Below, piece after piece: positions 12,589 to 49,712 of a stretch of 64,000 nucleotides of DNA (positions within the stretch are counted from its first letter, which is position 1; each line of letters starts with the position of its first letter). The notes beneath the pieces are model-generated. The model did not search any database. It saw nothing but the letters and a program-made list of their open reading frames with translations, and was not told the origin of the DNA. The DNA is from Bacteroidales bacterium. Lineage in GTDB: Bacteria > Bacteroidota > Bacteroidia > Bacteroidales > FEN-979. The DNA lies in NCBI GenBank assembly GCA_049317265.1, contig JBMOIP010000007.1, positions 2,663 to 66,662 of the forward strand. The letters are read 5' to 3'. Both the position numbers and the translations under genes were made by a program.

Positions 12589-12607
12589 TTTTCCAGGCTC
12601 GCGACTA

Positions 12608-15565: not shown

Positions 15566-16006
15566 CTATTTTACATTTTTAACGGTCAGGTCTGTAAAGG
15601 CTTTGCCCATCTCGTCCATATCGTGACTGAATTCAGCTTTGAAAACCAGCCATTTGTCTTTTCCCTCTTCCTTATAATTTTCAAGTCTCATTTTCATGTC
15701 GCTGTTTTTTTGTTCCAGAACTGCGATCTTCTTTTGGTATTCGGCCCGTGCAGATTTTTTCTCCTTTTCAATCCTTGCATTAAACCCCTTGATGCGCTCT
15801 TCATTGGCTGCAATGGTGGAAGCGGTTTCCATCCTGTAAGCAGCGATATCCGCCAGGTATTCCTGGTTTGCCTTGTCAAGATCCTTGTTGGCTTCCACAA
15901 CATTCTCCTGGGCATTCTCCACCTTTTGTGCACTGCTGCTGCAACCTGTTATCATGGCACTTGCAATGAACGTACTTGCTGCGAATGCTAAAATTGTCTT
16001 TTTCAT
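15566..16006 (-). CDS. coiled-coil lipoprotein
   Basis: ATG 16006 gives MKKTILAFAASTFIASAMITGC (lipobox). The remainder is K/E-rich and helical. The track's TTG start at 16081 lies inside module P2. Confidence 0.7.
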   Translation of the reverse strand: MKKTILAFAASTFIASAMITGCSSSAQKVENAQENVVEANKDLDKANQEYLADIAAYRMETASTIAANEERIKGFNARIEKEKKSARAEYQKKIAVLEQKNSDMKMRLENYKEEGKDKWLVFKAEFSHDMDEMGKAFTDLTVKNVK

Positions 16007-16023: not shown

Positions 16024-16039
16024 GTGAATGAATTTTCAC
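16024..16039 (-). promoter_or_regulatory. GTGAAA-N4-TTTCAC-type palindrome downstream of module P2
   Basis: gtgaatgaattttcac; arms match 5/6. It begins 4 nt after the TTTG of P2. Confidence 0.45.
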
Positions 16040-16043: not shown

Positions 16044-16110
16044 CAAAGGTGGCTCTGTTCAGCGCTGAATGTGTTACACAACTATCTCAAAATGTTACAT
16101 GATTCACACA
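16044..16110 (-). promoter_or_regulatory. conserved 67-bp promoter module P2
   Basis: Gene-oriented sequence: TGTGTGAATCATGTAAC-N13-TGTGTAACAC-N23-TTTG, 37 nt from ATG 16006. Confidence 0.7.
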
Positions 16111-16193
16111 TTAAAAAGAGAAACCCGCCGCGGAATGATATCCGGGCAGGCTCCTCTGCAATCGATCTTATAAACGAGTCAACTGATTCTGAT

Positions 16194-18838: not shown

Positions 18839-18854
18839 GTGAAAGTATTTTCAC
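18839..18854 (-). promoter_or_regulatory. GTGAAA-N4-TTTCAC palindrome downstream of module P3
   Basis: gtgaaagtattttcac has perfect 6-bp arms and begins 7 nt after the TTTG of P3. Confidence 0.5.
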
Positions 18855-18861: not shown

Positions 18862-18928
18862 CAAAGGTCGTTATCCCCTTCTCCTTTTATGTTACACAAA
18901 TCCTTATAAAAGTTGTATGATTCACACA
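18862..18928 (-). promoter_or_regulatory. conserved 67-bp promoter module P3
   Basis: Gene-oriented sequence: TGTGTGAATCATACAAC-N13-TGTGTAACAT-N23-TTTG, 41 nt from ATG 18820. The distal hexamer is a variant (ACAAC). Confidence 0.65.
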
Positions 18929-18992
18929 TGATTCCCCGTAAATGCTGCTGAATGCAATTGAAAAAACTCACAATTTTGATCTGTTCTTTTTT

Positions 18993-19129: not shown

Positions 19130-21013
19130 CTAATGCATGATGATTCTTCTTGATTCGAGATGGTCCCCGCTCCGAACCTGGATGAAATAGATTCCCGGTG
19201 TATTTCCGCCAAGGGTAAATTCGTAATGGTCCATACCTGTCAAATCTTTCTGCTGAATCAGATCACCCAGGGTGCCATAAATATGAGCCGTAGTATTTCC
19301 GCTTCTTATGGAAGGGTCCAATTCAACCGTGAATTTACCGTTGGTTGGATTTGGGTATATCCTGAGTGACAGTCCGGCTTCCTTGTCACTGGTTGTTTCA
19401 ATCAATTCTTTGGCTGCAGCAAATGAAGTTAAACCACAACAATACTCCCCTGTGGTTGTGATGTATGCATGCAGATATCCACCTGAATAGACCTGTGTTT
19501 CCGGAAGCAATTTAATATTTTGACCGGCAATCAATTTGATGATTCCACCGCCCAGGACATGGTATGGAATGGATCCACCTGCAACAATGATGGTTTGGGT
19601 GGCATTCTGGCAGTCAGATTCACCTGCGCCAATCTCACCGTTTACTGCAACTGTTTGCGGTATCGTATTCGCATTGCAACACCCTGAAGGCATGATGGCG
19701 GTTATGGCCGTGGTACTCAACGCCCCGGTTGTTGTGAGGGCCCTTCCTTCAATATAAACGCCGGTATTCAGGGCTCCCAGTGCGCCATTGTTACAAACAA
19801 TGGTTCCCCTGAATACTGAGTAGTTATTAATACTGACCGCACCTTCAATTTTCCAGAATACATTCTTGGCCTGGGCGCCATTCAGCATTTTTACCTTAGC
19901 GTAGGTGCTGGTTGACAGCGCTCCATTGATTTTAATCACGAACACGGCATCAGGGTTACCCATTGCATTGAGATAAACCCGCCCGTTCAGAACAGTTGCA
20001 GCGTTCAGCAGATAGGTATGTGGCGTTAGTACCAGGTCATTGCCAAACTGGGCCGGGTACAGTAACTCAATATCTGTAGGCAGTACGTTCAGGTAGTTGT
20101 AAACATCTAGCAAATCGGCAGCACACTGGGCAGTGGAACCATCCGGAATCGGATGAATGGTGCCCGATACCAGTAAAGGATCAAAGCCGATGGTTAATCC
20201 CACATTTGTACCGATATCCCCGGTAGCTTTTGTAGCGCCGGTATTGGCAACCGCCCCGTCGGAGGAGAACAGGACATAACACTCTGTCGACGCAAGTGCC
20301 GGCGCTATGGGGCCGGTAAGTATCGGGCTTCCGCAGCCAACCGGGGTATAGGCCAATACGCCATTGATGGTGATCGCCCCGGCGGTTGTAAGGGCCCTTC
20401 CTTCCAGGGTGTCGCCCGTGTTCATGTTTATTGCCGCGTTGTTTGCAATCACCGTTCCCCGCATGGTTGTTCCAGGAGCCATGCTCACCATACCCTCTAT
20501 TTTCCAGAACACGTTACATGATTTGGCTCCGTTGACCAGGTTTACTTTTGCGTTCGCACCCGTTGCAAAGGAGCCCTGAATCTGGAAAATAAATACCGCA
20601 TTGGCATCATTCTGGGCGTCTAAGGTAAGGTCAAGGTTCAACGTTGCCGCACCAGAAATGGAATAGACTCCTGCATTCAGCAACTGCCCGTTGCCAAGCA
20701 ATGGGGCAGGAAAAAAATTCGGGACAGTGCTATTTAGTTGATTATAGGCAATCAGCAGATCTGCGGCACACTGTGCGCTGGCGCCATCATTGTCGTGCAT
20801 CACACCGTTAACATTACCAAAACCGGTGCTTGAGCCGCTGTTTGTGCCAACATTCCCGGTTGCCTGGGTAATTCCTGAATTGTTCACGGCACCAACGGTA
20901 GAGAAAAAAACGAACCCGGCTGCAGTTCCCAACGGAGGAGCCTGGGCAAAGTTCATCATGGGCGCCAAAAACATCATAACAGCTGTTAAAGCATGTATTA
21001 TATTTGTTTTCAT
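19130..21013 (-). CDS. double-DUF3494 (ice-binding-like) T9SS cargo protein
   Basis: ATG 21013 gives the signal peptide MKTNIIHALTAVMMFLAPMMNFAQA. There are two tandem DUF3494-like domains (LGTAAGFVFFS...NAVFIFQIQG...CNVFWKIEG...GRAL; the second from about aa 240) and a C-terminal T9SS sorting domain (IYPNPTNGKFTVEL...GIYFIQV). Confidence 0.8.
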   Translation of the reverse strand: MKTNIIHALTAVMMFLAPMMNFAQAPPLGTAAGFVFFSTVGAVNNSGITQATGNVGTNSGSSTGFGNVNGVMHDNDGASAQCAADLLIAYNQLNSTVPNFFPAPLLGNGQLLNAGVYSISGAATLNLDLTLDAQNDANAVFIFQIQGSFATGANAKVNLVNGAKSCNVFWKIEGMVSMAPGTTMRGTVIANNAAINMNTGDTLEGRALTTAGAITINGVLAYTPVGCGSPILTGPIAPALASTECYVLFSSDGAVANTGATKATGDIGTNVGLTIGFDPLLVSGTIHPIPDGSTAQCAADLLDVYNYLNVLPTDIELLYPAQFGNDLVLTPHTYLLNAATVLNGRVYLNAMGNPDAVFVIKINGALSTSTYAKVKMLNGAQAKNVFWKIEGAVSINNYSVFRGTIVCNNGALGALNTGVYIEGRALTTTGALSTTAITAIMPSGCCNANTIPQTVAVNGEIGAGESDCQNATQTIIVAGGSIPYHVLGGGIIKLIAGQNIKLLPETQVYSGGYLHAYITTTGEYCCGLTSFAAAKELIETTSDKEAGLSLRIYPNPTNGKFTVELDPSIRSGNTTAHIYGTLGDLIQQKDLTGMDHYEFTLGGNTPGIYFIQVRSGDHLESRRIIMH

Positions 21014-21030: not shown

Positions 21031-21046
21031 GTGAAATAATTTCCAC
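21031..21046 (-). promoter_or_regulatory. GTGAAA-N4-TTTCAC-type palindrome downstream of module P4
   Basis: gtgaaataatttccac; arms match 5/6. It begins 7 nt after the TTTG of P4. Confidence 0.45.
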
Positions 21047-21053: not shown

Positions 21054-21120
21054 CAAAGATCGTTCTCCCATGCAATGAATGTGTTACATAACTATTTAAA
21101 AATGTTACATGATTCACACA
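21054..21120 (-). promoter_or_regulatory. conserved 67-bp promoter module P4
   Basis: Gene-oriented sequence: TGTGTGAATCATGTAAC-N13-TATGTAACAC-N23-TTTG, 40 nt from ATG 21013. Confidence 0.7.
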
Positions 21121-21137
21121 TGAACGTCATGGTTACA

Positions 21138-23414: not shown

Positions 23415-24656
23415 CTACATGTTTCTTGGGGGTTTGGGTGAATCCTTCTCCTTGTCATTACCGCCACCTTTCGATGGGCTCACCTGCTGTGGCTGTGCCG
23501 GCTGTTGCCTCGGGGGCTGAGCAGGGCGATGTTGCGGTTGCTGCTGTGCGGGCTGCTGTTTTGCCGGCTGGGCCTGGCGCTGTTGCGGTTGCTGCTGTGC
23601 GGGCTGCTGTTTTACCGGCTGGGCCTGGCGCTGTTGCGGTTGCTGTTGTGCGGGCTGCTGTTTTGCCGGCTGAGTCTGACGTTGTTGTGGCTGCTGGGGT
23701 TGCTGTGATGAAGGTTGTTGCCTTGCAGGCTGCGCAGGACGCTGCTGTTGCGCAGGTTGTTGCTTTGCAGGCTGGGCAGGACGCTGCTGTTGCGGGGGTT
23801 GCTGTTTGGCCGGTTGACTCCTTTGGGCAGGGGGCATCGCCCTTCTTTGGTCAATCGTTTTGATATTTTCAATCCGGCCTACCTTGGAAGGGGCGGGTTT
23901 TGGACCGCTGGGTGCGCTTCTTCTGACTTCCGGTTTGTAAATCTGAAGTTGATTGCTGTTCACGCGCTGGCCGGGTTTGGCGCGTTCCGTAACAGCAACC
24001 GGAGTGAATTTTCTTCCTGAGCGCTGCTCGGCCTGCCCTCTTTCAGGCCCGGCATTATAGGTTACATTCCGCGACCTGTCGACACGGTTGTTTACAATTA
24101 CGGTGGAGTTGTTGATGATCGTTACATTCTGTGTTTGGTTGACATAGTAGTTATTGATATCTCTTCTACCAAAGTCCCTGTCCCTGACGAATGTCCACCT
24201 GTTGTCCGGGATATTGTAACTATTTCCATAGGCAATATTGATACTGATGCCGGGGCCGATCGGGGCCCAGCCATAATAACCTGCCGACATCCTCCAGGTA
24301 ACCCATCCCGGTCCCCATTCATAGTCGGGAACCCACATAGCGCCATAACGATCATCCATAAACCAGCGGCCATAGTGAAATGGCGCCCACCCCCAGGAGT
24401 AGTTGGAGACCCAGGTCCATCCCTGGTCGGTAAAAATCCAGTAACCGTTTGTAGAATAAGGGGTAAATCCGGGGCCGACATCAGGAAGCCAGACATACCC
24501 GTAGTCGGGATTGTCGATCCATGTTCCGTAAGGACTCAGTTCATTATAAAAGACCTCAAAGCCGACCGACACACCCTGTGCCGGTATTCTTTGCGGAGTT
24601 AAAGCCGATCCTGCAAGGAAGATCATTAAAAGTGAAATCAATATTTTCGTTTTCAT
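23415..24656 (-). CDS. secreted W/Y/G-repeat protein with Gln/Pro-rich C-terminal repeats
   Basis: ATG 24656 gives the signal peptide MKTKILISLLMIFLAGSALT. The N-domain contains YGYVWLPD...WGWAPFHYGRW...YGWAPIGPG. The C-terminus is made of (R)QAQPAKQQPAQQQPQQ repeats. Confidence 0.75.
   Translation of the reverse strand: MKTKILISLLMIFLAGSALTPQRIPAQGVSVGFEVFYNELSPYGTWIDNPDYGYVWLPDVGPGFTPYSTNGYWIFTDQGWTWVSNYSWGWAPFHYGRWFMDDRYGAMWVPDYEWGPGWVTWRMSAGYYGWAPIGPGISINIAYGNSYNIPDNRWTFVRDRDFGRRDINNYYVNQTQNVTIINNSTVIVNNRVDRSRNVTYNAGPERGQAEQRSGRKFTPVAVTERAKPGQRVNSNQLQIYKPEVRRSAPSGPKPAPSKVGRIENIKTIDQRRAMPPAQRSQPAKQQPPQQQRPAQPAKQQPAQQQRPAQPARQQPSSQQPQQPQQRQTQPAKQQPAQQQPQQRQAQPVKQQPAQQQPQQRQAQPAKQQPAQQQPQHRPAQPPRQQPAQPQQVSPSKGGGNDKEKDSPKPPRNM
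23528..23680. repeat. 3 x 51-bp in-frame tandem repeat (degenerate units continue to ~23830)
   Basis: Units 23528-23578, 23579-23629 and 23630-23680 differ by only a few nt. Each encodes 17 aa of Q/P-rich sequence on the minus strand. Confidence 0.85.
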
Positions 24657-24690: not shown

Positions 24691-24757
24691 CAAAATTGCA
24701 CCCCTTTCCATGCCAAAGTGTTACACAATTACCCGGAAGAGTTACATCATTCACACG
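24691..24757 (-). promoter_or_regulatory. conserved 67-bp promoter module P5
   Basis: Gene-oriented sequence: cGTGTGAATGATGTAAC-N13-TGTGTAACAC-N23-TTTG, 34 nt from ATG 24656. Confidence 0.7.
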
Positions 24758-24758
24758 T

Positions 24759-24843
24759 TTGTGGTTTTCTGTGGGGGCTCCGTCTCTCCGAGTAACAAAT
24801 AATTACCCGGAGATTCACGGAGATATGGAGAGAACCACAGAGG
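24759..24843. repeat. CTCTGTG/CACAGAG-type imperfect hairpin element (copy c)
   Basis: Left arm tttgtggttttctgtgggggctccgtctctccgagtaa pairs with right arm ttacccggagattcacggagatatggagagaaccacagaggg. The element fills the gap between the divergent modules P5 and P6. Confidence 0.6.
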
Positions 24844-24862
24844 GAAAAATGAAATAGCGGAA

Positions 24863-24929
24863 TGTGTGAATCATGTAACATATTTAAAAAGTTATATAAC
24901 ACTTTCACAGGAGAGTCCTCATAATTTTG
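24863..24929 (+). promoter_or_regulatory. conserved 67-bp promoter module P6
   Basis: TGTGTGAATCATGTAAC-N13-TATATAACAC-N23-TTTG, with -7 box TAATTTTG, 23 nt from ATG 24953. Confidence 0.7.
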
Positions 24930-24952: not shown

Positions 24953-25795
24953 ATGAAAAAATTCCACCCCGTTGTTAAAGTAAAAGGATATACCACCAGG
25001 CAGTCTGTGTTACTGAGTGAAAAGGCATTGGCGAAAACCGCCATCGCCAGTAACTTTTTAACGGAAATTGCTGATGTATACCTTTTTATCGTAAAATTCA
25101 TCCGGGAAACATTTACGCGCAATTTTGAATTCAGGGAGTTCATGCGTCAGTGTTTTCAAATCGGGTACAAATCGCTCCCGCTGGTATCCATCACCGGGGC
25201 TATCATGGGGCTCGTCCTCACCATTCAATCGCGTCCTGTACTGGTTAAGTTCGGGGCGGTTACCATGCTTCCCGGCATGGTCGCCATCTCCATGATCAGG
25301 GAGATGGGCCCGGTGATCACTGCTCTTATCCTTGCAGGAAAGGTCGGTTCGGGGATGGGCGCTGAACTTGGCTCAATGAAAGTAACCGAACAGATTGATG
25401 CCATGGAGGTATCCTCTACCAACCCGATGCGGTTTTTGGTGGTGACCAGGGTGTGGGCAGCCATTTTCATGATCCCCTTGCTGATTTTATATGCCGATGC
25501 ATTCGGAATTTTCGGATGCTGGGCCGGCGCCAATATCAAAGGCGATGTATCGCTGGTTCTCTTCTTTTCCCAGGCATTCGGCAATGTACAATTCATGGAC
25601 CTCCTGCCGGCGGTAATCAAGTCGTTTTTTTTCGGGGCGGTGATCGGATTCGTGGGGTGCTATAAGGGATACAATGCCGGAAGGGGAACAGAAAGTGTCG
25701 GTATTGCCGCAAATTCAGCCGTGGTACTATCCTCGCTGCTTGTAATTATTGTAGATATGATCGCTGTACAGATTACTGATATGCTGGTACAATGA
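24953..25795 (+). CDS. mlaE: MlaE-family ABC transporter permease
   Basis: 280 aa with the conserved MlaE core (REMGPVITALILAGKVGSGMGAELGSMKVTEQIDAMEV). Confidence 0.85.
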   Translation: MKKFHPVVKVKGYTTRQSVLLSEKALAKTAIASNFLTEIADVYLFIVKFIRETFTRNFEFREFMRQCFQIGYKSLPLVSITGAIMGLVLTIQSRPVLVKFGAVTMLPGMVAISMIREMGPVITALILAGKVGSGMGAELGSMKVTEQIDAMEVSSTNPMRFLVVTRVWAAIFMIPLLILYADAFGIFGCWAGANIKGDVSLVLFFSQAFGNVQFMDLLPAVIKSFFFGAVIGFVGCYKGYNAGRGTESVGIAANSAVVLSSLLVIIVDMIAVQITDMLVQ

Positions 25796-26574
25796 CCATA
25801 CTTCACAAAGAAATACCAGCCATAAAAACAATGAAGCCTTCTTCAAAGGATCCGGTGATCGAAATCAGGAACCTGAAAAAGTCGTTCGGGCAGCAGGAAG
25901 TGCTCTCCGATATCACACTTGATCTGCTGAATGGTGAAAATCTTGTAATCCTCGGCAAATCGGGTTCGGGAAAATCGGTATTGATCAAATGCATCGCCGG
26001 TTTACTTAATTCAGATGGGGGAACCATCAAGGTCTTTGACAAGATAGTGAATACGCTGGATAGCAATGAGCTGAATGACCTTCGCCAGAAAATCGGATTC
26101 CTTTTTCAAAGCGGCGCATTGTATGATTCCATGACCGTGAAGGAGAACCTTGAATTCCCCTTGAAGAGGATCAAGAAGGAGCTGACCGCAAAACAGGTGG
26201 CGGAAAAAATCGGGGAGGTACTTGAGAATGTTGGCCTGGCGGATGCCCTTTACAAAATGCCATCGCAACTTTCAGGCGGGATGCGTAAAAGAATCAGTCT
26301 TGCCCGCACCATTGTCGTCGACCCGATGATCATGCTGTATGATGAACCCACCACCGGGCTCGATCCCATTACTTCAGACGAAATCAGCGCACTCATCCTG
26401 GAGGTTCAGAAGAAATACAAAACCTCCTCCATCATCATCACCCACGATATCAAATGCGCCCGTAACACGGCAAACCGAATCATCATGCTGGCCGAAGGGA
26501 TGGTGTTGAAGGAGGGGACCATGGCCGATTTTGAAAACAGCAAAGACCCGGTCATCCAATCATTCTTCAGCTGA
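25792..26574 (+). CDS. mlaF: ABC transporter ATP-binding protein (MlaF-like)
   Basis: Walker A GKSGSGKS, signature LSGGMRKR, and an ATGA overlap with mlaE. Confidence 0.85.
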   Translation: MTILHKEIPAIKTMKPSSKDPVIEIRNLKKSFGQQEVLSDITLDLLNGENLVILGKSGSGKSVLIKCIAGLLNSDGGTIKVFDKIVNTLDSNELNDLRQKIGFLFQSGALYDSMTVKENLEFPLKRIKKELTAKQVAEKIGEVLENVGLADALYKMPSQLSGGMRKRISLARTIVVDPMIMLYDEPTTGLDPITSDEISALILEVQKKYKTSSIIITHDIKCARNTANRIIMLAEGMVLKEGTMADFENSKDPVIQSFFS

Positions 26575-26598
26575 CACCTGAAATCTGCAATCGTAAAT

Positions 26599-26929
26599 TA
26601 CTGCTGATGCGTTAACTTTTAATATTCTATATAAATCACTGATAAATAAAACAATATTGTCGTCCTGATATTTTTTGATTTGAATTATTCACAAAATTCC
26701 TCTCTGTGGCTCTCTTTGCGGTTTCTCAGTGGTACTCAGTGAAACAAAATTACACAGAGGTACCACGGAGAAGTCACTGAGAGCCACAGAGGGAAATAGA
26801 ATGTATCATAGTTTGGGAATTGACCAGATGAAATATCATTGAACGAACTACTTGTAAAATATCAAATCAGTTAGAAAGTCTATGGCAATAGCATTCTGAT
26901 AGCACCTTAAGTTAAACGCATCAGCACTA
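26599..26929. mobile_element. MITE-like non-coding insertion (331 bp) between mlaF and mlaD
   Basis: Terminal inverted repeats TACTGCTGATGCGTTAACTT (26599-26618) and the reverse complement of aagttaaacgcatcagcacta (26909-26929) differ by 1 mismatch and 1 indel. They are flanked by an identical 9-bp direct repeat ATCGTAAAT (26590-26598 and 26930-26938). No ORF inside. Caveat: the flanks are themselves heptad-repetitive. Confidence 0.45.
26699..26793. repeat. CTCTGTG/CACAGAG imperfect hairpin element (copy b, inside the MITE-like element)
   Basis: The outer stem is a perfect 13 bp (ctctgtggctctc 26702-26714 / gagagccacagag 26779-26791). The inner arms are ctcagtg x2 versus cacagag, cacggag and cactgag. 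Confidence 0.65.
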
Positions 26930-26960
26930 ATCGTAAATCACATATTCGTAAATCAACAAG

Positions 26961-27743
26961 ATGGAAACAAAATCACAAAAATTCAAAATCAGGTTAGGCC
27001 TTTTCATTGCAGGAGGCCTGGCGCTATTTGTCCTCGCCATCTTTATCATCGGCAAGCAGAAAAACCTGTTCAATCCTGTATTTCAGATTACAACGACATT
27101 TTCGAATGTCAGCGGGTTGCAGGTTGGCAACAACATCCGCTTCTCCGGGATCAATGTAGGCACTGTTGACAACATCACCATCATCAACGATTCGACGGTG
27201 AAGGTGGACATGCTGATCAAAAAAGATGTCAGGCAGTTTATCAAGACTGATTGCGAAGTAGCCATAGGGTCGGAAGGACTGATTGGCGACAGGTTGCTCG
27301 TGATCACGCAAGGCAGTGCGGAGGCTCAGCCTGTAAAGAATAAGCAGCGCCTTGTCTCGGCCGAACCCGTTGAACTCGATGCCATCATGGCCAGCTTGCA
27401 GGTTACTGCCGGCAATGCGGAAATTATTTCGCAACAGCTGGCCGAAGTGATGTATAAAGTAAACAACGGCCAGGGAACCCTTGGAAGACTAATTGAAGAT
27501 ACGGCCATTGCCAACAATTTAAGCCAGACGATGGTGAACATCAAACGGAGCAGCAAGGGGCTGGATGAAAATATGAATGCAGCCAAGGAGAATTTCCTGC
27601 TGAGAGGGTACTTCAGAAGGCAGGCTGAGGCGGAAGAAGAGAAGAAACAGGATGCGGCAGATAAGGTCAAGGATGCCCGGAAGAAGAAAGCGTCAGAAGA
27701 TAAAAAAGCAGCAAAACAAAAGTTAAAGGACGATAAGAAATAG
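26961..27743 (+). CDS. mlaD: MlaD/MCE-domain protein
   Basis: N-terminal TM anchor followed by an MCE domain (FSNVSGLQVGNNIRFSGINVGTVDNITI) and a K/E-rich tail. Confidence 0.8.
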   Translation: METKSQKFKIRLGLFIAGGLALFVLAIFIIGKQKNLFNPVFQITTTFSNVSGLQVGNNIRFSGINVGTVDNITIINDSTVKVDMLIKKDVRQFIKTDCEVAIGSEGLIGDRLLVITQGSAEAQPVKNKQRLVSAEPVELDAIMASLQVTAGNAEIISQQLAEVMYKVNNGQGTLGRLIEDTAIANNLSQTMVNIKRSSKGLDENMNAAKENFLLRGYFRRQAEAEEEKKQDAADKVKDARKKKASEDKKAAKQKLKDDKK

Positions 27744-27758
27744 CATTGTTGCAGCAAA

Positions 27759-27825
27759 TGTGTGAATCATGTAAGTTTAACTAAAAGTTGTGTAACACAT
27801 TCCGGTTCGCCGGGTCGGACCTTTG
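27759..27825 (+). promoter_or_regulatory. conserved 67-bp promoter module P7
   Basis: TGTGTGAATCATGTAAG-N13-TGTGTAACAC-N23-TTTG. It begins 15 nt after the mlaD stop, 30 nt from ATG 27856. Confidence 0.7.
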
Positions 27826-27855: not shown

Positions 27856-28653
27856 ATGAAAAAGAGTCTCTATTCCATTGCATGCCTCTCCATCGTGATC
27901 GGTATGATGTTTACCTCTTGTATTTCAAACAAGAAGTTCGCTGCTTCCCAGGCGAAAGTGGATCAACTTCAGAAAGACAACGCCAGTTCACTCGGCAAAC
28001 TGAATGATTGCAATTTACAGGTAAGAAACCTGAGTAATGAAAAGACCTCCCTGCAAAATGCAAACGCCTCGGTTGAAAACGATCTGAAAGCGCTCTCCTC
28101 AACCTCCAAAATGACCATTGCGGAACAGGCAAAAAGGCTTCAAAGCTTACAGAATATGATTCAATCGCAACGGGATGTGATGTCAAATTTGAAAAATTCA
28201 ATCGCAGCAGCGTTGCTGAATTACAAAGCCGATGAATTGTCGGTCTATATCAAGGATGGCAATGTATATGTTTCGATGGAAGAGAAACTGCTTTTCAAAT
28301 CGGGCAGCGACCTGGTCAATCCACAGGGGAAAGAGGCGCTGAAATCGCTTGCAAAGGTGATCAACAGCACCAAAGACATTACGGTAAACATCGAAGGACA
28401 TACCGACAATGTCCCCATCAACACCAAACAGTTTGAAGACAACTGGGATCTGAGCACTGCGAGAGCGACATCCATTGTACGTATCCTGACCAAGGATTAC
28501 GACTTTGATCCAAACCGAATTACTGCATCGGGCAGAGGCAAGTTCCACCCGGTTAAAACAAATGACACTGCTGAAGGACGTGCCGGGAACCGCAGAACAG
28601 AAGTAATTCTTTCGCCCGACCTCAATGAACTTTACAAACTTTTGTATCAATAG
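27856..28653 (+). CDS. OmpA/MotB-domain lipoprotein with coiled-coil
   Basis: ATG 27856 gives MKKSLYSIACLSIVIGMMFTSC (lipobox). A coiled-coil is followed by an OmpA-like domain (NIEGHTDNVPI...STARATSIVRIL...GNRRTEVIL). Confidence 0.8.
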   Translation: MKKSLYSIACLSIVIGMMFTSCISNKKFAASQAKVDQLQKDNASSLGKLNDCNLQVRNLSNEKTSLQNANASVENDLKALSSTSKMTIAEQAKRLQSLQNMIQSQRDVMSNLKNSIAAALLNYKADELSVYIKDGNVYVSMEEKLLFKSGSDLVNPQGKEALKSLAKVINSTKDITVNIEGHTDNVPINTKQFEDNWDLSTARATSIVRILTKDYDFDPNRITASGRGKFHPVKTNDTAEGRAGNRRTEVILSPDLNELYKLLYQ

Positions 28654-29428: not shown

Positions 29429-29476
29429 AATGATGTGCTTTTCGGGATAGGGTCAATACCCGAATGGCACAGTTAA

Positions 29477-29543
29477 AGTGTGAATGATGTAAGTTATAGT
29501 AAAAATTATGTAACGCATCCCGGCTGCCAGGGGCATAACTTTG
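29477..29543 (+). promoter_or_regulatory. conserved 67-bp promoter module P8
   Basis: aGTGTGAATGATGTAAG-N13-TATGTAACGC-N23-TTTG, with -7 box TAACTTTG, 62 nt from ATG 29606. Confidence 0.7.
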
Positions 29544-29605: not shown

Positions 29606-29761
29606 ATGGGAAGCTTATTATACATCATCGCGGTTATTCTGGTTATAGCATGGGCCATTGGATTTTTCGCCTACAGCGCCGGAGGCATCATTCACATCCT
29701 GCTGGTTATTGCGCTTATTGCAATAATATTCAGGGTAATCCAGGGAAGAAACGTAATTTAA
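29606..29761 (+). CDS. lmo0937-family small membrane protein (sORF absent from track)
   Basis: The 51-aa product MGSLLYIIAVILVIAWAIGFFAYSAGGIIHILLVIALIAIIFRVIQGRNVI has two TM helices and the conserved GG.IH.LLVIA...I.G motif of this family. Confidence 0.7.
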   Translation: MGSLLYIIAVILVIAWAIGFFAYSAGGIIHILLVIALIAIIFRVIQGRNVI

Positions 29762-29768: not shown

Positions 29769-30879
29769 GTGACAGCTAAAGAACTCGTATTCCCTTTTTA
29801 CGCCAGGATCACATTTCTTTTGGTCGGTTCCTTTGCCTTGATAGCGATGTTGTACATCGCTCAAGGCATTGTTGTTCCGATCATATTTGCAATAATTATT
29901 GCCATCCTGCTCCAACCAGTTGTGAGTTTTTTAGTCAGGTTACGCATCAACAGGGTAGTTGCCATTGCGATTACCATGTTACTGACATTTTTGATCATTG
30001 CTGCAATTGGTTTTTTGCTGTTCACACAGGCAAGCCGGTTCAGCGAATCCTGGCCACTATTGGTCGACAGGTTTACCTTGATGCTCAACCAGTCTATCAC
30101 ATGGGTATCCGAATATTTTGATATAAAACCACAAAAAATCCACGAATGGATCATTAAAACCAAAAATGAAGTCATCAACACGAGCAGCGCTGCCATTGGG
30201 CAAACCCTGCTCTCCGTTGGGAACACCATTGTGGTGATCCTGCTGGTTCCGGCCTATGTTTTTATGATCCTTTATTACCAGCCGCTGCTGCTTGACTTTA
30301 TCCGCAGACTGTTTGCAAAAAAGCCATCAAAGCCAGGTGAGTGAGGTGGTGGGTCAAACCAAAACTGTGATACAACACTATCTCATCGGGCTGGTTATAG
30401 AAGCCATCATTGTGGCAACCCTGGATGCCACCGCACTTTTTATCCTGGGAATTGACTATGCGATTTTGCTGGGGATTTTAGGCGCTTTGCTGAATGTCAT
30501 TCCATATATCGGCGGACTTGTTGCCGTAGCGCTGCCCATGATGATCGCAATAGCCACCAAATCAACGGCATGGTATGCCGTTTATGTGTTGCTTGCATAC
30601 TATTTCATTCAGCTGATCGACAACAACTACATTGTTCCCATCATCGTCTCTTCGAAAGTCAAAATCAATGCCTTGTTTTCCATCATCGTGGTCATTGCAG
30701 GAAATGCCTTATGGGGAGTCCCCGGCATGTTTCTGTCCATACCCCTGCTTGCCATCATCAAACTTATTTTCGATCACATCGATTCTCTCAAACCCTGGGG
30801 CTTTTTATTAGGCGACACCATGCCGCAGATCATTAAAATCAGCCCGGTAATAAAAAAAATATTAAAAAAATCTAAATGA
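29769..30879 (+). pseudogene. AI-2E/PerM-family (UPF0118) transporter, frame-broken
   Basis: ORFs 29769-30344 and 30292-30879 are the N- and C-halves of one permease. The frames differ by 1 nt with the break inside the A6 run 30317-30322, and total length is 3n+1. GTG start. Confidence 0.75.
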
Positions 30880-34282: not shown

Positions 34283-34298
34283 GTATTTCCAGTTAAAA

Positions 34299-34364
34299 TG
34301 TGTGAATTATGTAAACTATTTAAATAATTATGTAAATCATCGTCGATAAAGGCAGCCACCTTTG
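34299..34364 (+). promoter_or_regulatory. conserved promoter module P9 (66 bp)
   Basis: TGTGTGAATTATGTAAA-N13-TATGTAAATC-N22-TTTG. It begins 16 nt after the GT4 stop, 83 nt from the TTG start at 34448. This is the most divergent copy. Confidence 0.6.
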
Positions 34365-34447
34365 CACAATTTCAGATTGAACAAAATCATGCAACACCAT
34401 TAACAGAAGATATACTTATCATCAAAGCATTATAAATAAGCAACCTG

Positions 34448-35029
34448 TTGAAGATCTACATTAAATACATGGTTAGTAACCGTTGTAAATTAGCGGTGAA
34501 AGAGGCATTGAAGCAACTTGGGTTGCACTTTATCGTGGTCGATTTAGGGGAGGTGGAGATTATGGAGAGCATCACTGCTTTGCAAAGAACCGAACTTACA
34601 GGCATCCTTCTGAATTCGGGGCTCGAGCTGATGGATGACAAACGGGCCGTCCTCATTGAAAGGATAAAAAATGCAGTGATTGAGATGATCCATCATTCGG
34701 ATGAGATGATCAAGACAAATTTTTCCGACTTCATCAGTAAAAAACTCGATCATGACTACACTTACCTCGCTAACCTCTTTTCTGAAGTGCAGGGTACCAC
34801 CATCGAGCATTACATCATCTCCCATAAAATTGAACGGATCAAGGAGCTCATTATCTATGATGAACTGAATATCACAGAAATAGCCTGGAAATTAAACTAT
34901 AGCAGTGTTGCACATCTTTCAAATCAGTTCAAAAAGGCGACCGGGCTCTCCCCTTCGCATTTTAAACAACTGAAAGTAAAAAAACGAATCCCGCTCGAAG
35001 AGATCGGTAACGCAATGCATGAAGACTAA
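34448..35029 (+). CDS. small AraC-family regulator with N-terminal HMA/ferredoxin-like domain
   Basis: The TTG start is supported by the ATG-initiated paralog (MKIYIKYMVSNRC vs MKLYIKYMVSIRC). The C-terminus is an AraC double HTH (ITEIAWKLNYSSVAHLSNQFKKATGLSPSHF). Confidence 0.8.
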   Translation: MKIYIKYMVSNRCKLAVKEALKQLGLHFIVVDLGEVEIMESITALQRTELTGILLNSGLELMDDKRAVLIERIKNAVIEMIHHSDEMIKTNFSDFISKKLDHDYTYLANLFSEVQGTTIEHYIISHKIERIKELIIYDELNITEIAWKLNYSSVAHLSNQFKKATGLSPSHFKQLKVKKRIPLEEIGNAMHED

Positions 35030-37737
35030 TGCGCAATAATATGGAACGAACCCATTCACACGACGCACAATACGCCAGCAGCCTGATCGAAGCGAGCCTC
35101 GACCCGTTGATCACCATCAGTCCCGACGGGAAGATTACCGATATGAACCAGGCGAAGGTGGATATCACCGGCATCGAACGCGCACAACTTGTAGGTACGA
35201 ATTTCTTCGATTACTTCACCGAACCCAAACAGGCATACGCCGTTTACCTGGAAGTGTTCGCCAAGGGTAACGTGACCGATGCGGCCCTCACATTCCGGCA
35301 TAAAAACGGTAAGCTGACCGATGTTTTGTTCAATGGTTCGGTTTACAAAGATGAGAATGGCGTGGTGATCGGAGCTGTAGTTGTTGCACGTGACATTGGA
35401 GAGCAAAAATGGGCCATTGACCTTCAAATCGCCAACAAGGAACTTGCTTTCCAAAACGATGAAAAAGAGAAACGGGCACAGGAACTCATCATTGCCAATA
35501 AAGAACTTGCTTTCCAAAACAATGAAAAAGAGAAACGTGCACAGGAACTGATCATTGCAAATAAAGAACTTGCATTTCAGAACAACGAAAAGGAGAAGAG
35601 AGCTGCAGAGTTGATCATTGCCAACAAAGAACTTCTCTTTCAAAACCAGGAGAAAGGAAAACGGGCAGCTGAATTAGGCATCGCAAACATTGAACTTGCT
35701 TTCCAGAATGATGAAAAGGAGAAAAGGGCTGCGGAGTTAAGGATTGCCAACTATGCCCGCAGCATCATCGAGGCAAGCCGCGACCCGCTGTTTACCATTA
35801 GTCCGGCCGGTAAAATTACCGACATGAACAATGCGTCGGTAAGAATAACTGGTTGTTCCCGTGAAGCGCTGACTGGAAGCAACTTTTTTGACTATTTCAC
35901 CAACCCGGCGAAAGCACGGAAGGTATACCGTGAAGTATTCGCAAAAGGGTTCGTTGCCGACTATCCGCTAACCATCAAGGATCATAAACTGACAGATGTA
36001 CTGCTGAATGGCTCCGTGTACAATGATGAGCAGGGTAAAGTGCTGGGCGTTGTCGTCGTTGCAAGGGATATTACCGATCAGAAAAGAATTGAAAGTGAGC
36101 TGACCGAAGCGATCGTCTTTGCAGAACTGGCTACAACCATTGCAGAAGAGGCAAAAATCAAGGCGGAGAATTCGACCAGGGTGGCCGAAAATGCGGTGAA
36201 AGCAAAACAGCAGTTCCTTTCAAATATGAGCCATGAAATCCGGACCCCAATGAATGCCATCATCGGGTTTACCAAAGTTTTGCTGAAAACGGATCTCTCC
36301 GCCAAACAAAAAGAGTACCTCACCGCCATTAAAATGAGTGGGGATGCCCTGATCGTGCTGATCAACGACATCCTCGACCTGGCTAAGGTGGATGCCGGAA
36401 AGATGATTTTTGAACAAACGCCTTTTACCATGGCCTTGTCGATATCGGCCATGCTCCATCTGTTTGAAGCCAAAATCCAGGAGAAAAACCTGGCGTTTGT
36501 AATCGATTATGATAAGAACATCCCGACGGTTCTGGTAGGTGATCCGGTAAGACTGCACCAGATCATTCTCAACCTGGTGAGCAATGCAGTGAAATTCACC
36601 AACAAAGGGACCATCACGGTAAGCGTGCGGTTGATCAATGAGGACAAGGATAACGCAACCATAGAATTTGCCATTGCGGATACAGGGATTGGCATTCCGG
36701 AGGGTAAAATAGATAAGATTTTCGAAAACTTCCAGCAGGCAACGAGCGGAACTTCAAGGTTGTATGGGGGAACAGGGCTGGGACTCGCCATCGTCAAACA
36801 ACTGGTGGAACCCCAGGGTGGCAGGATATGGGTAAAAAGCAAAGTGGATGAAGGCTCGACATTCAGCTTTATACTGACTTTTCATAAAACCAGCGCTGCT
36901 GCCGAGGCCGACGATGAAATAGTGGAACTCGACACTGAGATCAAAAATATAAAGGTGCTGGTGGTCGAAGATATTCCGCTCAACCAGTTGCTGATGAAAA
37001 CGCTGCTGGACGATTTCGGGTTTGAGCGCGATGTGGTGGCCAACGGGAAAATCGCCATCGAGGTATTGCAGAACAAATCATACGATATAATCCTGATGGA
37101 CTTGCAGATGCCTGAAATGAACGGGTTTGAGGCAACGGAGTATATCCGGAACAAGATGAATTCGAAGATCCCCATCATTGCATTAACCGCAGATGTAACC
37201 ACGGTTGACCTGGCGAAATGCAAAGCAGTGGGCATGAATGACTATATTGCCAAACCGGTTGACGAACGGCTGCTTTACAGTAAAATAGTCGGGTTGGTCA
37301 AAAAACCTGTTCCGCCAAAATTCAACCCCGGAAATGAAAAAAATCCATGCGACAACAGGAAAGAGAAGTGCATCGACCTGGAGTACCTGATCCATCGTAC
37401 GAAATCAAACCCGGTGATGATGATGGAGATGATCTCTCTCTACCTTGAACAAACTCCACCATTGATCAACACCATGAAAAAAAGCCTGTTAAACAAAGAC
37501 TGGCACTCATTGCATTCGGCGGTACACAAAATGATCCCCTCCTTCGCTATCATGGGTATCAGCGTCGATTTTGAAAATATGGCTAAAAAAGTGCAGGAGT
37601 ATGCAAGTACCCAAAAACAATCAGACGGGATCAGTGACATGGTCATGCAGATTGGCAACATTTGCACACAGGCATGCAGTGAACTGGAAGAAGAATTTAT
37701 ACGAATTAAAAGTACTGAAAATGAACCAAAAAGGTAA
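35029..37737 (+). CDS. hybrid sensor histidine kinase (PAS-repeat-PAS-HisKA-HATPase-REC-HPt)
   Basis: H-box SHEIRTPMNAIIG, G2 box GTGLGLAIVKQL, receiver VLVVEDIPLNQ...LMDLQMPEMNG, and an HPt-like C-terminus. TAATG overlap with the AraC gene. Confidence 0.85.
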   Translation: MRNNMERTHSHDAQYASSLIEASLDPLITISPDGKITDMNQAKVDITGIERAQLVGTNFFDYFTEPKQAYAVYLEVFAKGNVTDAALTFRHKNGKLTDVLFNGSVYKDENGVVIGAVVVARDIGEQKWAIDLQIANKELAFQNDEKEKRAQELIIANKELAFQNNEKEKRAQELIIANKELAFQNNEKEKRAAELIIANKELLFQNQEKGKRAAELGIANIELAFQNDEKEKRAAELRIANYARSIIEASRDPLFTISPAGKITDMNNASVRITGCSREALTGSNFFDYFTNPAKARKVYREVFAKGFVADYPLTIKDHKLTDVLLNGSVYNDEQGKVLGVVVVARDITDQKRIESELTEAIVFAELATTIAEEAKIKAENSTRVAENAVKAKQQFLSNMSHEIRTPMNAIIGFTKVLLKTDLSAKQKEYLTAIKMSGDALIVLINDILDLAKVDAGKMIFEQTPFTMALSISAMLHLFEAKIQEKNLAFVIDYDKNIPTVLVGDPVRLHQIILNLVSNAVKFTNKGTITVSVRLINEDKDNATIEFAIADTGIGIPEGKIDKIFENFQQATSGTSRLYGGTGLGLAIVKQLVEPQGGRIWVKSKVDEGSTFSFILTFHKTSAAAEADDEIVELDTEIKNIKVLVVEDIPLNQLLMKTLLDDFGFERDVVANGKIAIEVLQNKSYDIILMDLQMPEMNGFEATEYIRNKMNSKIPIIALTADVTTVDLAKCKAVGMNDYIAKPVDERLLYSKIVGLVKKPVPPKFNPGNEKNPCDNRKEKCIDLEYLIHRTKSNPVMMMEMISLYLEQTPPLINTMKKSLLNKDWHSLHSAVHKMIPSFAIMGISVDFENMAKKVQEYASTQKQSDGISDMVMQIGNICTQACSELEEEFIRIKSTENEPKR
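35428..35742. repeat. 5 x 63-bp in-frame tandem repeat
   Basis: Units start at 35428, 35491, 35554, 35617 and 35680. Each encodes IANKELAFQN(D/N)EKEKRA(Q/A)EL(I), and together they link the two PAS domains. Confidence 0.85.
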
Positions 37738-38155
37738 AATAAAGCTGTTCCTGGTGGATGACGATGCCTTGTTTTTGAAGTCATTGGAAATCGAATTCCT
37801 CCAGCATGCCGATTTTTCCATTGAGACATATGCCACAGGCGAACTATGCATGGCAAACTTATCACACTGTCCGGATGTCATCATCCTCGACTATATGCTT
37901 GACAGTATTGATCAGAATGCTATGAACGGGATACAAACCCTGGATAAAATCAAAGCTTATAACCAGGACATACCGGTCATCATTTTATCCTCCCAGGATA
38001 AAATTGATGTTGCGGTGAGTTGCATGCACCACAGGGCCTTTGATTATGTGGTAAAAAGCGAAACCGCCTTTATCCGGCTTCAGAAGATCATCACCACCAT
38101 CTTCCGGTACAGGAAGATGGAGAAAGAGCTGAACTGGTATATGGAAAGGATGTGA
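37721..38155 (+). CDS. single-domain response regulator (CheY-like)
   Basis: ATG 37721 gives MNQKGKIKLFLVDDDALFLKSLE...ILDYML. It has 144 aa, no output domain, and overlaps the kinase 3' end by 17 nt. Confidence 0.75.
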   Translation: MNQKGKIKLFLVDDDALFLKSLEIEFLQHADFSIETYATGELCMANLSHCPDVIILDYMLDSIDQNAMNGIQTLDKIKAYNQDIPVIILSSQDKIDVAVSCMHHRAFDYVVKSETAFIRLQKIITTIFRYRKMEKELNWYMERM

Positions 38156-42158: not shown

Positions 42159-42200
42159 ATTAACAATGGACATTAAACAGCCATAAAATCGGTATGTAAA

Positions 42201-42267
42201 TGTGTGAATGATGTAACAATTTGCAAAATTTATGTAACACTTCAACCCTCCTGCGGGCTTAATTTCG
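42201..42267 (+). promoter_or_regulatory. conserved 67-bp promoter module P10
   Basis: TGTGTGAATGATGTAAC-N13-TATGTAACAC-N23-TTCG (TTTG variant), 23 nt from ATG 42291. Confidence 0.65.
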
Positions 42268-47540: not shown

Positions 47541-47607
47541 CAAAGGTCCATGAATCAACAGCAACAAGTGTTACATAACTAAGGAAAAAACTTACATGAT
47601 TCACACA
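47541..47607 (-). promoter_or_regulatory. conserved 67-bp promoter module P11
   Basis: Gene-oriented sequence: TGTGTGAATCATGTAAG-N13-TATGTAACAC-N23-TTTG. The distal end abuts the stop codon (47608-47610) of the upstream gene. Confidence 0.7.
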
Positions 47608-48666
47608 TTAATAGGTTACCGGGGCCTTTTTCTTCTTTTTGAAGATGTCGAACCTTGTCCCACCCCAAAACCGGATCTGGCCAACATCATAAGCAAACAA
47701 TGCGTTGCTGAGTTTATCAGGAACTTCGTTGAACCCTGTTTGAACCGAAGCCCCGAGAAACCATTTGTCCGAATTATAACCCAGTGCCAGTCTGCCGCTG
47801 AGCTGGAAGATAAATCCAAAATCCGTATCAGTGTCCAGTTTGCTGGTATACGACGAAAACTGGGCAGCAACGCCAGGAAAAACGCCTGCTGTAACATAGA
47901 AATTCTTAAGGAAAACGAAGGTATACATGTACCCCGGCGAAAGTCCGTAGGTATAGAACTCCCCGCTTTTAATCTGGTTGGCCAATGGCAGACCGTAGGC
48001 ATCTGCCAGTTCCTGCGGAATGATTCCATCATTTGAAGACACCCTGAAGTATAAAAAGGAGGGTCGTACCACCAGGCTGCCGGCACTCTTCTTCTGCCGT
48101 TCATTCTGAATGAATGCAGCCCTCACCGAAAACCTCTTTGCTTTATAGATCCAATACCCGGAAATGCCCAGCGAGATGGTTTGCATGTCTGGTATAATGT
48201 AGTGGGTACCATCCGGCCGTTCAGGGGAAGAAAGATAAAAACCCTTGTATCGCTGCAAAAAGAATTCACCGGCCACAACCCGCCCGAAGGCATTGATCCG
48301 GAGGTCTATCGTGGATGTTTTTCCGTAAGCGTCACGGTCTGTTTTATAGAAAGGGTTATCCATCGATAACCCCAGTCCAAACCATCTCCAGAACCCGGCA
48401 ATCCCAATCCTCAGGTTGACATTGGGCCGGTAAACGACTTTTGAAATTTTTTCATTATCAGGATTGATCAGCAGCGAGGCATTCTGAAATAAGAGGAACA
48501 ACCTTGCCGTTACCAGGCTGGTATAATCTTCAAGGTAATTACTGTCGAAGGCAATGTGCGGTATGGTATCCGGCGATTGCATAGTTGATTGGGCGCCGGA
48601 AAACTTGGCGACAATGATCAAGTAGAAAAGTATCGTGCCGGTAACCAGTGTTTTAGCTGACTTCAT
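47608..48666 (-). CDS. DUF4421-like outer-membrane protein
   Basis: 352 aa with a signal peptide and beta-strand-rich sequence (RINAFGRVVAGEFFLQRYKGFYL...). The family assignment is from memory. Confidence 0.6.
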   Translation of the reverse strand: MKSAKTLVTGTILFYLIIVAKFSGAQSTMQSPDTIPHIAFDSNYLEDYTSLVTARLFLLFQNASLLINPDNEKISKVVYRPNVNLRIGIAGFWRWFGLGLSMDNPFYKTDRDAYGKTSTIDLRINAFGRVVAGEFFLQRYKGFYLSSPERPDGTHYIIPDMQTISLGISGYWIYKAKRFSVRAAFIQNERQKKSAGSLVVRPSFLYFRVSSNDGIIPQELADAYGLPLANQIKSGEFYTYGLSPGYMYTFVFLKNFYVTAGVFPGVAAQFSSYTSKLDTDTDFGFIFQLSGRLALGYNSDKWFLGASVQTGFNEVPDKLSNALFAYDVGQIRFWGGTRFDIFKKKKKAPVTY

Positions 48667-49001: not shown

Positions 49002-49616
49002 TCATTTACCGGCAGACATTTTCATCAATGCCACAGGATCCAGTTTCATGGTCAGGTCTTCAATGCCCAGGTTGGTCAGTTCAATTTCACACTGGATCAC
49101 TACTTCCTCACTGATCAGGAACCCTGCCGTTTCCAACGGGGTATTCCAGGCCAGTCCCCAGTCGCTTCTGCTCAATTTCCCGGTGACGGTAAACCCGGCT
49201 TTTTCATTTCCCCATGGATCGTGCACAATTCCGCCGAACTGCAGGTTCATCTTTACATTCTTCGTAATCCCGACCATGGTCAGTTCACCCCACATTTCAT
49301 GGTTTCCTTCATGATCCGGGTTGCCGATCGTACCCGAAGTAAAGGTGAGTTGCTTGTGGTTCTGAACATCAAAAAAATCACTGCTTTTCAGATGTTCATC
49401 CCGCTTTTCATTTGCTGTTTCAATGGATGACGCATCGATCCACAGGTCAATTTCAACTGTGGTAAAGTCCTTCTCAGTAGTATAAATGCTGGCATCAAAT
49501 TTTTTGAAAGTACCATTGACGTGAGAAATCATCAGATGCTTGATTTTAAAACCGATTTCGCTGTGAGCCTGGTCGATAGACCACTTTGTTTTTTGTAGAA
49601 CTTGAGGAGTTTTCAT
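49002..49616 (-). CDS. yceI: YceI-family periplasmic polyisoprenoid-binding protein
   Basis: Contains WSIDQAHSEIGFKIKHLMISHVNGTFKKF and a later ...VTGKLSRSDWGL. 204 aa. Confidence 0.85.
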   Translation of the reverse strand: MKTPQVLQKTKWSIDQAHSEIGFKIKHLMISHVNGTFKKFDASIYTTEKDFTTVEIDLWIDASSIETANEKRDEHLKSSDFFDVQNHKQLTFTSGTIGNPDHEGNHEMWGELTMVGITKNVKMNLQFGGIVHDPWGNEKAGFTVTGKLSRSDWGLAWNTPLETAGFLISEEVVIQCEIELTNLGIEDLTMKLDPVALMKMSAGK

Positions 49617-49642: not shown

Positions 49643-49709
49643 CAAAGTTGGATCTCTTACCGGTGGAAAGTGTTACATAACTCCTTAAATTAGTTACATC
49701 ATTCACACA
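49643..49709 (-). promoter_or_regulatory. conserved 67-bp promoter module P12
   Basis: Gene-oriented sequence: TGTGTGAATGATGTAAC-N13-TATGTAACAC-N23-TTTG, 26 nt from ATG 49616. The distal end is 3 nt from the upstream stop codon. Confidence 0.7.
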
Positions 49710-49712
49710 TTA

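Follow-up and report, generated by a model that had tools for sequence, protein, structure and literature searches.

Which protein reads the 69-bp promoter-like module that recurs along a 64,000-nt stretch of Bacteroidales DNA (contig JBMOIP010000007.1; the whole stretch is called the window here), and what does it do there? Repeat finding and fuzzy search detected 13 copies without gaps in the window, of which five are on the plus and eight on the minus strand; one lies in front of the gene for a small AraC-family protein, A1. We consider it rather probable that A1-type proteins are autoregulated class II activators, which would replace a -33 contact missing from these promoters. We infer from association and geometry that they bind the repeats of the module. 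The features on which the argument turns are the following, modules being named by their anchor (offset 0), the first T of TGTGAAT.

34448-35029, plus strand: A1, AraC paralog of 193 aa, TTG start
56104-56664, minus strand: A2, AraC paralog of 186 aa, no module upstream
34297-34365, plus strand: module 34301, upstream of the A1 operon, 49 bits, the lowest-scoring copy
34298-34314, plus strand: box 1 of module 34301, TGTGAATTATGTAAA
34326-34336, plus strand: box 2 of module 34301, AATTATGTAAA
34357-34364, plus strand: -7-like box of module 34301, CACCTTTG, nearer by 1 nt than that of the 12 remaining copies
35029-37737, plus strand: tripartite sensor kinase of 902 aa, with PAS, coiled-coil repeats, PAS, HisKA, HATPase, REC and Hpt (Pfam)
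37721-38155, plus strand: single-domain response regulator of 144 aa, Pfam Response_reg at residues 10-114 (E 1.6e-16)

The module is composed of TGTGAATnATGTAA(c), a second TGTAA(c) 21 bp downstream and nAnCTTTG 20-21 nt further. Box 1 (consensus TGTGAATsATGTAA(c), offsets 0-14) is followed by an A/T-rich stretch and by box 2 (A-r-T-T-r-TGTAA(c), offsets 25-35), so that the TGTAA(c) repeats, at offsets 9-13 and 30-34, have a period of 21 bp. A variable spacer, G+C-rich in the window copies (59% versus 46% overall), separates box 2 from the nAnCTTTG box at offsets 57-64. With a 72-column weight matrix built from the 13 window copies, these scored 49-83 bits and no other window position exceeded 15 bits; modules 49707 and 16108 were the strongest and 34301, A1's own, the weakest. 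Exact TGTGAATNATGTAA occurs 12 times in the window. When up to two mismatches were allowed, 17 matches were obtained compared to 2.45 expected from shuffles, and TGTAA-N16-TGTAA with at most one mismatch likewise gave 17, compared to 4.26. Together with about 200 other contigs, the total set amounted to 477 copies. A reading of the window from its sequence only had described TGTAAC direct repeats exactly 21 bp apart. The spacing was fully borne out, since the distance from box 1 to box 2 is constant in 152 of 152 copies from other genomes. TGTAA is conserved as well, but the final C is present in only 55-72% of copies, and in module 34301 both repeats are TGTAAA (34310-34315 and 34331-34336).

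Several features suggest that the module is a promoter. The conserved 3′ element, a CTTTG of housekeeping type, begins 22 nt after TGTAAC. It had been likened to a TAnnTTTG -7 box; the TTTG is indeed conserved and A58 is found in 95% of copies, whereas the leading T is found in just 26%. No TTTG was present at the -33 position, 19-21 nt upstream, in any of the 13 window copies or of the 477 overall (TTG in 1.3%), as had been noted, and this position is filled by the end of the proximal repeat. In modules of other genomes, the distance between box 2 and the -7 box was constant in 113 copies and 1 nt shorter in 10. An open reading frame (ORF) in the correct orientation follows 450 of the 477 modules, and the median distance from the -7 box to the start codon is 40 nt. 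The -7 box of Flavobacterium psychrophilum has been mapped at -12 to -5 (PMC9723704); the same start-site study contains no motif of the module type. Applied to the module, this position predicts a transcription start near offset 69. If the -7 box is so placed, box 2 would extend from about -44 to -34 and box 1 from about -72 to -56, and two 10-bp direct repeats (AaTnrTGTAA) would be centred near -61 and -40.

Both AraC paralogs of about 190 aa proposed earlier are real by Pfam, with the correction that A2 is encoded on the minus strand (56664 to 56104). They are 70% identical. The sole Pfam match of each is C-terminal, HTH_18/HTH_AraC at residues 99-174 (HTH_18 E 4.5e-16 for A1 and 1.8e-13 for A2), and neither protein has a model of its own in NCBIfam. 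A protein 100% identical to A1 (P0001) comes from a Bacteroidales metagenome-assembled genome, and an exact-sequence look-up of A2 gave no record. In the AlphaFold2 model of A1 (predicted local distance difference test, pLDDT, 81), residues 1-61 form an N-domain of beta-alpha-beta-beta-alpha-beta topology, followed by a long helix (64-82), a linker and a seven-helix AraC DNA-binding domain (92-173). Model confidence drops at residues 81-90, which suggests that the linker is flexible there. As modelled, the DNA-binding domain is a complete canonical AraC domain with two helix-turn-helix motifs. Foldseek placed it closest to AraT, YesN, MarA, SoxS and GadX, the Rob and AraC DNA-binding domains being also retrieved; by sequence and structure together, the closest matches were 6swi AraT, 3lsg YesN and 12aw HTCS.

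The N-domain had been described as HMA-like, with a metal motif that looks degenerate. This is correct as to fold and ancestry, MVSxRC replacing MxCxxC. Foldseek matched the domain to Atx1, CopZ and TTHA1718 (hits 2xmt Atx1, 2roe and 2qif), with target-normalised template modelling scores of 0.62-0.67 and probabilities of 0.98-1.0 but E-values of only about 0.1. No match to Pfam HMA (PF00403) was obtained in the first 92 residues of A1 or A2, even at E<=10. Within the A1/A2 clade M8-V9-S10-x-R12-C13-K14 is invariant and provides one cysteine only (SxxC), while relatives at 43-55% identity commonly retain the canonical MxCxxC. These distant members indicate that the N-domain probably derives from HMA. 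Metal binding by A1 and A2 is nevertheless doubtful, judging from the lack of a Pfam HMA match and the single cysteine of MVSxRC. An AraC sensu stricto, with an N-terminal cupin-type ligand and dimerisation domain, was also considered and rejected, as the N-domain is a 60-residue beta-alpha-beta-beta-alpha-beta unit without Pfam match.

The linkage of A1 to the module extends far beyond the window. A1 has more than 8000 close relatives, more than 530 of them in a scan with one genome per species, and the best 80 are 76-84% identical to it. These 80 belong to at least seven lineages, including Bacteroidales, Prolixibacteraceae, Paludibacter, Odoribacter, Flavobacterium, Chryseobacterium, Chitinophagaceae and Cytophagales. 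Their flanking DNA (1.19 Mb) was searched with the matrix at a cut-off of 25 bits and yielded 249 modules, where chance expectation was estimated at well under one. In 66 of the 80 genomes, the AraC orthologue is preceded on its own strand by a module at a distance below 400 nt, in most cases 88-95 nt ahead of the start codon. This is what autoregulation of A1, as put forward in the sequence-only reading, predicts; A1 is likewise the first real gene after module 34301. At four-fold degenerate sites, A1 and its orthologues are only 23-40% identical, compared to 77-84% at the protein level, i.e. synonymous sites are saturated. High protein identity combined with such saturation suggests that the protein has been under strong purifying selection since ancient times, and the site is conserved to match. 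Because of the same saturation, we reject recent horizontal transfer as an explanation for the high identity.

Extra AraC paralogs also alternate with modules in tandem arrays. As noticed before, A2 ends within a module, its TGA stop (56106-56104) lying in the TGTGAAT of box 1 of module 56108. The paralog gene thus abuts the next module-driven gene with zero intergenic space. The same overlap of stop codon and box 1 (..AAT GTG TGA) was seen in L005 (3763-3767), L010 (9306-9310), L037 (8745-8749 and 9432-9436) and L063 (14078-14082).

By Pfam, A1 and A2 are the only DNA-binding regulators among the long ORFs of the window, in which no sigma factor, CRP/FNR or LytTR protein was detected. The A1 clade is therefore our candidate for binding the module, because it is constantly linked to the module, its own promoter included, and because it is the sole DNA-binding protein in the conserved core and the sole regulator type in this 64-kb, 13-module window. 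The tandem arrays of paralogs and modules, the matched extreme conservation of protein and site and the textbook AraC/XylS geometry argue for the same candidate.

A1 is the first gene of an operon with signalling functions. The A1 stop codon shares nucleotides with the ATG of the kinase (TAATG), and the last 17 nt of the kinase gene also belong to the response regulator gene. HisKA, HATPase, REC and Hpt are found in one kinase accompanied by a separate receiver, which defines a tripartite (unorthodox) phosphorelay. The Pfam match to Hpt is weak (E 0.0019), and the NCBIfam profiles for ArcB, TorS and BarA extend through the Hpt region. The 144-aa regulator is presumed to be the terminal phospho-acceptor. 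Of 92 AraC copies, 56 have such a kinase gene behind them. When ORFs were clustered across loci, the AraC protein was recovered from 81 of these, the hybrid PAS kinase from 61 and the 144-aa receiver from 58. In L205 and L206, AraC is directly followed by the single-domain regulator and the kinase is not between them. The kinase, the regulator and the phylum-wide stress regulon described below were missed in the sequence-only reading.

Two further observations concern this operon. The kinase gene contains, between its PAS domains (35365-35750), five tandem 63-nt repeats encoding 21-aa units (IANKELAFQNxEKEKRAxEL), and this unit is also present in kinases and PAS proteins of other loci. Some lineages, among them those of L201, L203, L205, L207, L075 and L076, carry extra genes after AraC, in the order AraC, CheR, CheB, a 1211-aa 4HB_MCP-GAF hybrid kinase, a REC-PAS kinase and a single-domain regulator of 143-144 aa. 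Such an arrangement implies methylation-based adaptation in the input pathway.

In the mechanism that we favour, the module would be an activator-dependent promoter of the primary Bacteroidota sigma factor, its -7 box being kept and its -33 element absent. A1, possibly with A2, would bind both repeats head to tail, and the proximal A1 copy would cover the -33/-35-equivalent position and recruit RNA polymerase. Activation would thus be of class II, as at araBAD I1-I2 or for XylS at Pm. Transcription of A1 would start from a weak copy of the module and, since A1 is driven by its own module, the circuit would feed back positively. A1 would be translationally coupled to the PAS tripartite kinase (His to Asp to His) and to the 144-aa regulator, on which the phosphorelay would end. 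The regulator would then control A1 via the HMA-like N-domain or the linker helix, and the two proteins would form a split response regulator of the AraC-output type. This kinase-to-AraC step is deduced from operon structure only. A split version of that design is suggested by the DNA-binding domain of A1, which is most like those of REC-AraC response regulators. The output would be a general, envelope, cold or desiccation stress regulon.

The genes found behind modules include CsbD, YtxH, DUF5670/lmo0937, YceI, Usp, OmpA, MlaE and Ice_binding. An AraC-independent sample was obtained by searching metagenome contigs for the exact module pattern, which provided at least 120 contigs and at least 215 modules. 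Among the matches listed, the downstream genes encoded CsbD (31), Ice_binding (15), OmpA/Gly-zipper (15), DUF5670 (9), cupin (9), MlaE (8), AraC (3) and YceI (3) proteins. CsbD and YtxH are classic SigB-dependent proteins.

A second cis element accompanies part of these modules. The palindrome GTGAA-N6-TTCAC, typically GTGAAAATTCATTCAC, is found where transcription is predicted to start, 4-7 nt beyond the -7 box. In addition to four copies in the window (listed below with their modules), it was found in many other loci, e.g. L021 around 14500 and L030 around 15570. It follows 27 of 58 CsbD, 20 of 44 Ice_binding and 7 of 25 OmpA modules, and none of 67 AraC modules. It is probably the operator of a separate repressor, or else possibly a 5′ hairpin.

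Variant modules (TGTGATTTATGCAAC ... TTGTATAAC) were observed before tandem genes for short Ice_binding-like lipoproteins in L014 (3366-6915) and L201 (416-3655, 10859 and 12041). Divergent AraC paralogs (the A3 subfamily, 50-69% identity) adjoin these variants, and the A3 genes themselves lie behind canonical modules. Variant modules and A3 paralogs may constitute a regulatory cascade.

We regard as a tentative possibility, and clearly less secure than the proposed role of A1 itself, that these elements make up a split-response-regulator stress switch used throughout the phylum Bacteroidota. A phosphorylated receiver and an HMA-derived AraC activator would operate at dozens of rigid promoters, with GTGAA-N6-TTCAC as a second layer at a subset of them.

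A number of points weigh against A1 as the activator of the module. Box 1 carries an additional strongly conserved TGTG(A) whose matching positions in box 2 are unconserved, which a two-repeat model leaves unexplained. No module was detectable within 400 nt of 14 of the 80 orthologues. The association would fit equally well if A1 were a mere target of the true regulator and, as the survey covered the window and the loci, an unlinked sigma factor or transcription factor is possible. Finally, when covariation between paralog and site was looked for with the A3 subfamily, variant modules turned up in just two closely related contigs, L014 and L201. They are promoters of tandemly duplicated genes, TGCAAC is a common variant elsewhere, and we do not count these modules as evidence.

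The best surviving alternative, which we nonetheless judge unlikely, makes the AraC-kinase-regulator operon one target of an unlinked regulator reading the module: a sigma factor, alternative or of the extracytoplasmic function (ECF) type, using TGTAAC as -35, a CRP/FNR-like protein or a LytTR protein. In Bacillus subtilis, promoters of the SigX-type ECF class have TGTAAC as their -35 hexamer. TGTGA, as found in box 1, corresponds to one half of a CRP site, and a perfect TGTGA-N6-TCACA does exist in this organism at 63815-63830. However, no gene for a sigma factor, CRP/FNR or LytTR protein was found in the window or in the clusters recurring in the 80 loci; for LytTR, this extends to the absence of its domain among the scanned window proteins and those clusters. 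The alternative sigma factor considered in the sequence-only reading fits less well than an activator, because neither TGTAAC is followed at 16-17 nt by a conserved -10 element (offsets 50-57 have an information content of about 0) and CTTTG stands 21 nt downstream instead. About 40 bp of conserved upstream sequence and a second repeat would, moreover, be needless for a sigma factor. The CRP-like reading of the distal TGTGA fails on the asymmetry of box 1. A CRP-type site needs C and A at offsets 12 and 15, while the right half of box 1 is TAAC(t), without two-fold symmetry, with A at offset 12 in 99% of copies and T at offset 15 in 73%.

It appears improbable that A1 and A2 bind the repeats mainly as repressors or anti-activators, box 2 occluding polymerase until the kinase pathway relieves it. 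The overlap of box 2 with the expected site of sigma region 4 would suit such a role, as would the weakness of A1's own module and the frequency of negative autoregulation. Yet -33 is absent in 477 of 477 modules and the primary sigma factor of the phylum uses -33 and -7. The bare promoter should therefore be weak, and a repressor would have little to act on. Activators, moreover, classically have direct repeats at about -61 and -40, and the GTGAA-N6-TTCAC at the start site of a subset of modules itself looks like a repressor site. Least credible by far is a repeated or mobile intergenic element or structured 5′ RNA motif in place of a promoter: the module is a multi-copy intergenic repeat of fixed length, but it is always oriented towards a gene whose start codon is typically 20-75 nt downstream, keeps its sequence from order to order but shows no compensatory-pair structure, has no Rfam match at gathering thresholds anywhere in the window and ends in the -7 box of the phylum.

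With A1 as a class II activator, the system can be compared to known ones. Direct half-sites with a 21-bp period, the proximal one over the -35-equivalent position as the earlier reading had recognised, are shared with araBAD I1-I2 (AraC), XylS at Pm and RhaS/RhaR. A C-terminal two-HTH domain joined by a flexible linker to an N-domain, and autoregulation, are shared with AraC/XylS class II activators. The N-domain here, however, is an HMA-like ferredoxin fold of about 60 residues and not a cupin or jelly-roll sugar-binding domain; in addition, the promoter is of the Bacteroidota -33/-7 type, the input is apparently a co-transcribed phosphorelay instead of a small ligand, and binding is putative. 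MarA, SoxS and Rob are similarly small AraC-family proteins with dispersed stress regulons and degenerate asymmetric boxes. MarA and SoxS are single-domain monomers regulated by abundance and acting at one marbox, in contrast to the two phased boxes and extra N-domain observed here. AraC output coupled to His-Asp signalling is known from YesN/AraT-type REC-AraC regulators and Bacteroides hybrid two-component systems; in the A1 operon the receiver stands alone as a 144-aa protein, its place in the AraC protein being taken by an HMA-like domain. With the HMA metallochaperones CopZ, Atx1 and TTHA1718, A1 and A2 share the beta-alpha-beta-beta-alpha-beta fold with its motif in the beta1-alpha1 loop, but their clade differs by the invariant MVSxRC, the single cysteine and the lack of a Pfam HMA match.

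At the level of the regulon, the likeness is to SigB (Bacillus), EcfG-NepR-PhyR (Alphaproteobacteria) and RpoS. The gene content overlaps, including Usp, YceI, Dps-like and envelope proteins. Autoregulation is a further common trait, as is the proximity of several PAS kinases or single-domain regulators. Instead of an alternative sigma factor with partner switching, the system proposed here would rely on an activator that cooperates with the housekeeping sigma factor. Four features set it apart from class II AraC/XylS and from SigB/EcfG, namely its HMA-derived N-domain, its separate receiver, its Bacteroidota promoter and its proposed phylum-wide role. Bacteroidota abound in soils, waters and guts and, to our knowledge, nobody has defined a counterpart of SigB, RpoS or EcfG in this phylum.

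Full-text literature searches brought up no account of the module, of an HMA-AraC family or of a general stress regulator in Bacteroidota. What comes closest in print is RgzA/RgzB of Flavobacterium johnsoniae, an unorthodox hybrid kinase with Hpt and an adjacent single-domain regulator whose output is unknown (bioRxiv 10.64898/2026.07.01.735801). RgzA is a GAF-type kinase and no AraC neighbour is mentioned (bioRxiv 10.64898/2026.07.01.735801); the likeness to the A1 operon is architectural only.

The module represents a sharply defined cis element of about 25-80 bits which can be searched in any genome, and it comes with a conserved candidate regulator, a sensory operon and a coherent target set (CsbD, YtxH, lmo0937-family, YceI, Usp, OmpA, Mla and ice-binding-like proteins). 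If the proposal is true, an output would be assigned to orphan single-domain response regulators, and class II activation on the -33/-7 promoters of Bacteroidota would have a clean example.

The other 12 modules of the window, with the genes behind them and the GTGAA-N6-TTCAC copies, are the following.

12522-12590, minus strand: module 12586, upstream of CsbD (12272-12457; Pfam CsbD)
12502-12517, minus strand: GTGAA-N6-TTCAC
16044-16112, minus strand: module 16108, upstream of a 146-aa coiled-coil lipoprotein (15566-16006)
16024-16039, minus strand: GTGAA-N6-TTCAC
18862-18930, minus strand: module 18926, upstream of an ice-binding-like paralog (17813-18820)
18839-18854, minus strand: GTGAA-N6-TTCAC
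21054-21122, minus strand: module 21118, upstream of an Ice_binding protein with a type IX secretion system (T9SS) sorting domain (19130-21013)
21031-21046, minus strand: GTGAA-N6-TTCAC
24691-24759, minus strand: module 24755, upstream of a DUF6600 protein (23415-24656), back to back with module 24865
24861-24929, plus strand: module 24865, upstream of MlaE, an ABC-type ATPase-like gene and a third co-directional gene (24953-27743)
27757-27825, plus strand: module 27761, upstream of an OmpA-family lipoprotein (27856-28653)
29475-29543, plus strand: module 29479, upstream of a DUF5670/lmo0937-family membrane protein (29606-29761)
42199-42267, plus strand: module 42203, upstream of an acidic protein of 119-125 aa, then Usp, CbpA-like DnaJ and MerR_2 (CbpM-like)
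47541-47609, minus strand: module 47605, upstream of a 59-aa Gly/His-rich lipoprotein, then a PAP2 gene
49643-49711, minus strand: module 49707, upstream of YceI (49002-49616)
56044-56112, minus strand: module 56108, upstream of PAP2, DUF748 and more co-directional genes

In the MlaE operon, the Pfam scan covered MlaE only, and the ATPase and MlaD-like labels come from reading the sequence, as do the HlyD and ABC labels downstream of module 56108. The DUF5670/lmo0937-family gene is followed by a split permease, a GH130 gene and a glycosyltransferase gene. The permease is divided into overlapping ORFs (29769-30344 and 30292-30879), whereas its orthologues are single proteins of about 350 aa. 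The Ice_binding paralog behind module 18926 also appears split (17813-18820 and 16194-17933). Both genes look disrupted, by frameshifts, as pseudogenes or through assembly errors. Tandem 51-nt repeats are present in the DUF6600 gene (23488-23823).

Beside the CsbD module, the minus strand (5121-11980) encodes a kinase of 1883 aa that contains seven PAS domains, with a REC-HisKA-HATPase protein next to it, so that several sensor kinases are clustered with the regulon. At the far end of the window, the gene for a T9SS-sorted protein contains tandem 87-nt repeats (62696-63271). The perfect CRP-type palindrome TGTGAATAATATCACA (TGTGA-N6-TCACA, 63815-63830) lies upstream of the minus-strand T9SS-cargo gene (62332-63669) and near the TACCTTTG box of that gene (63780-63787); it is unrelated to the modules.

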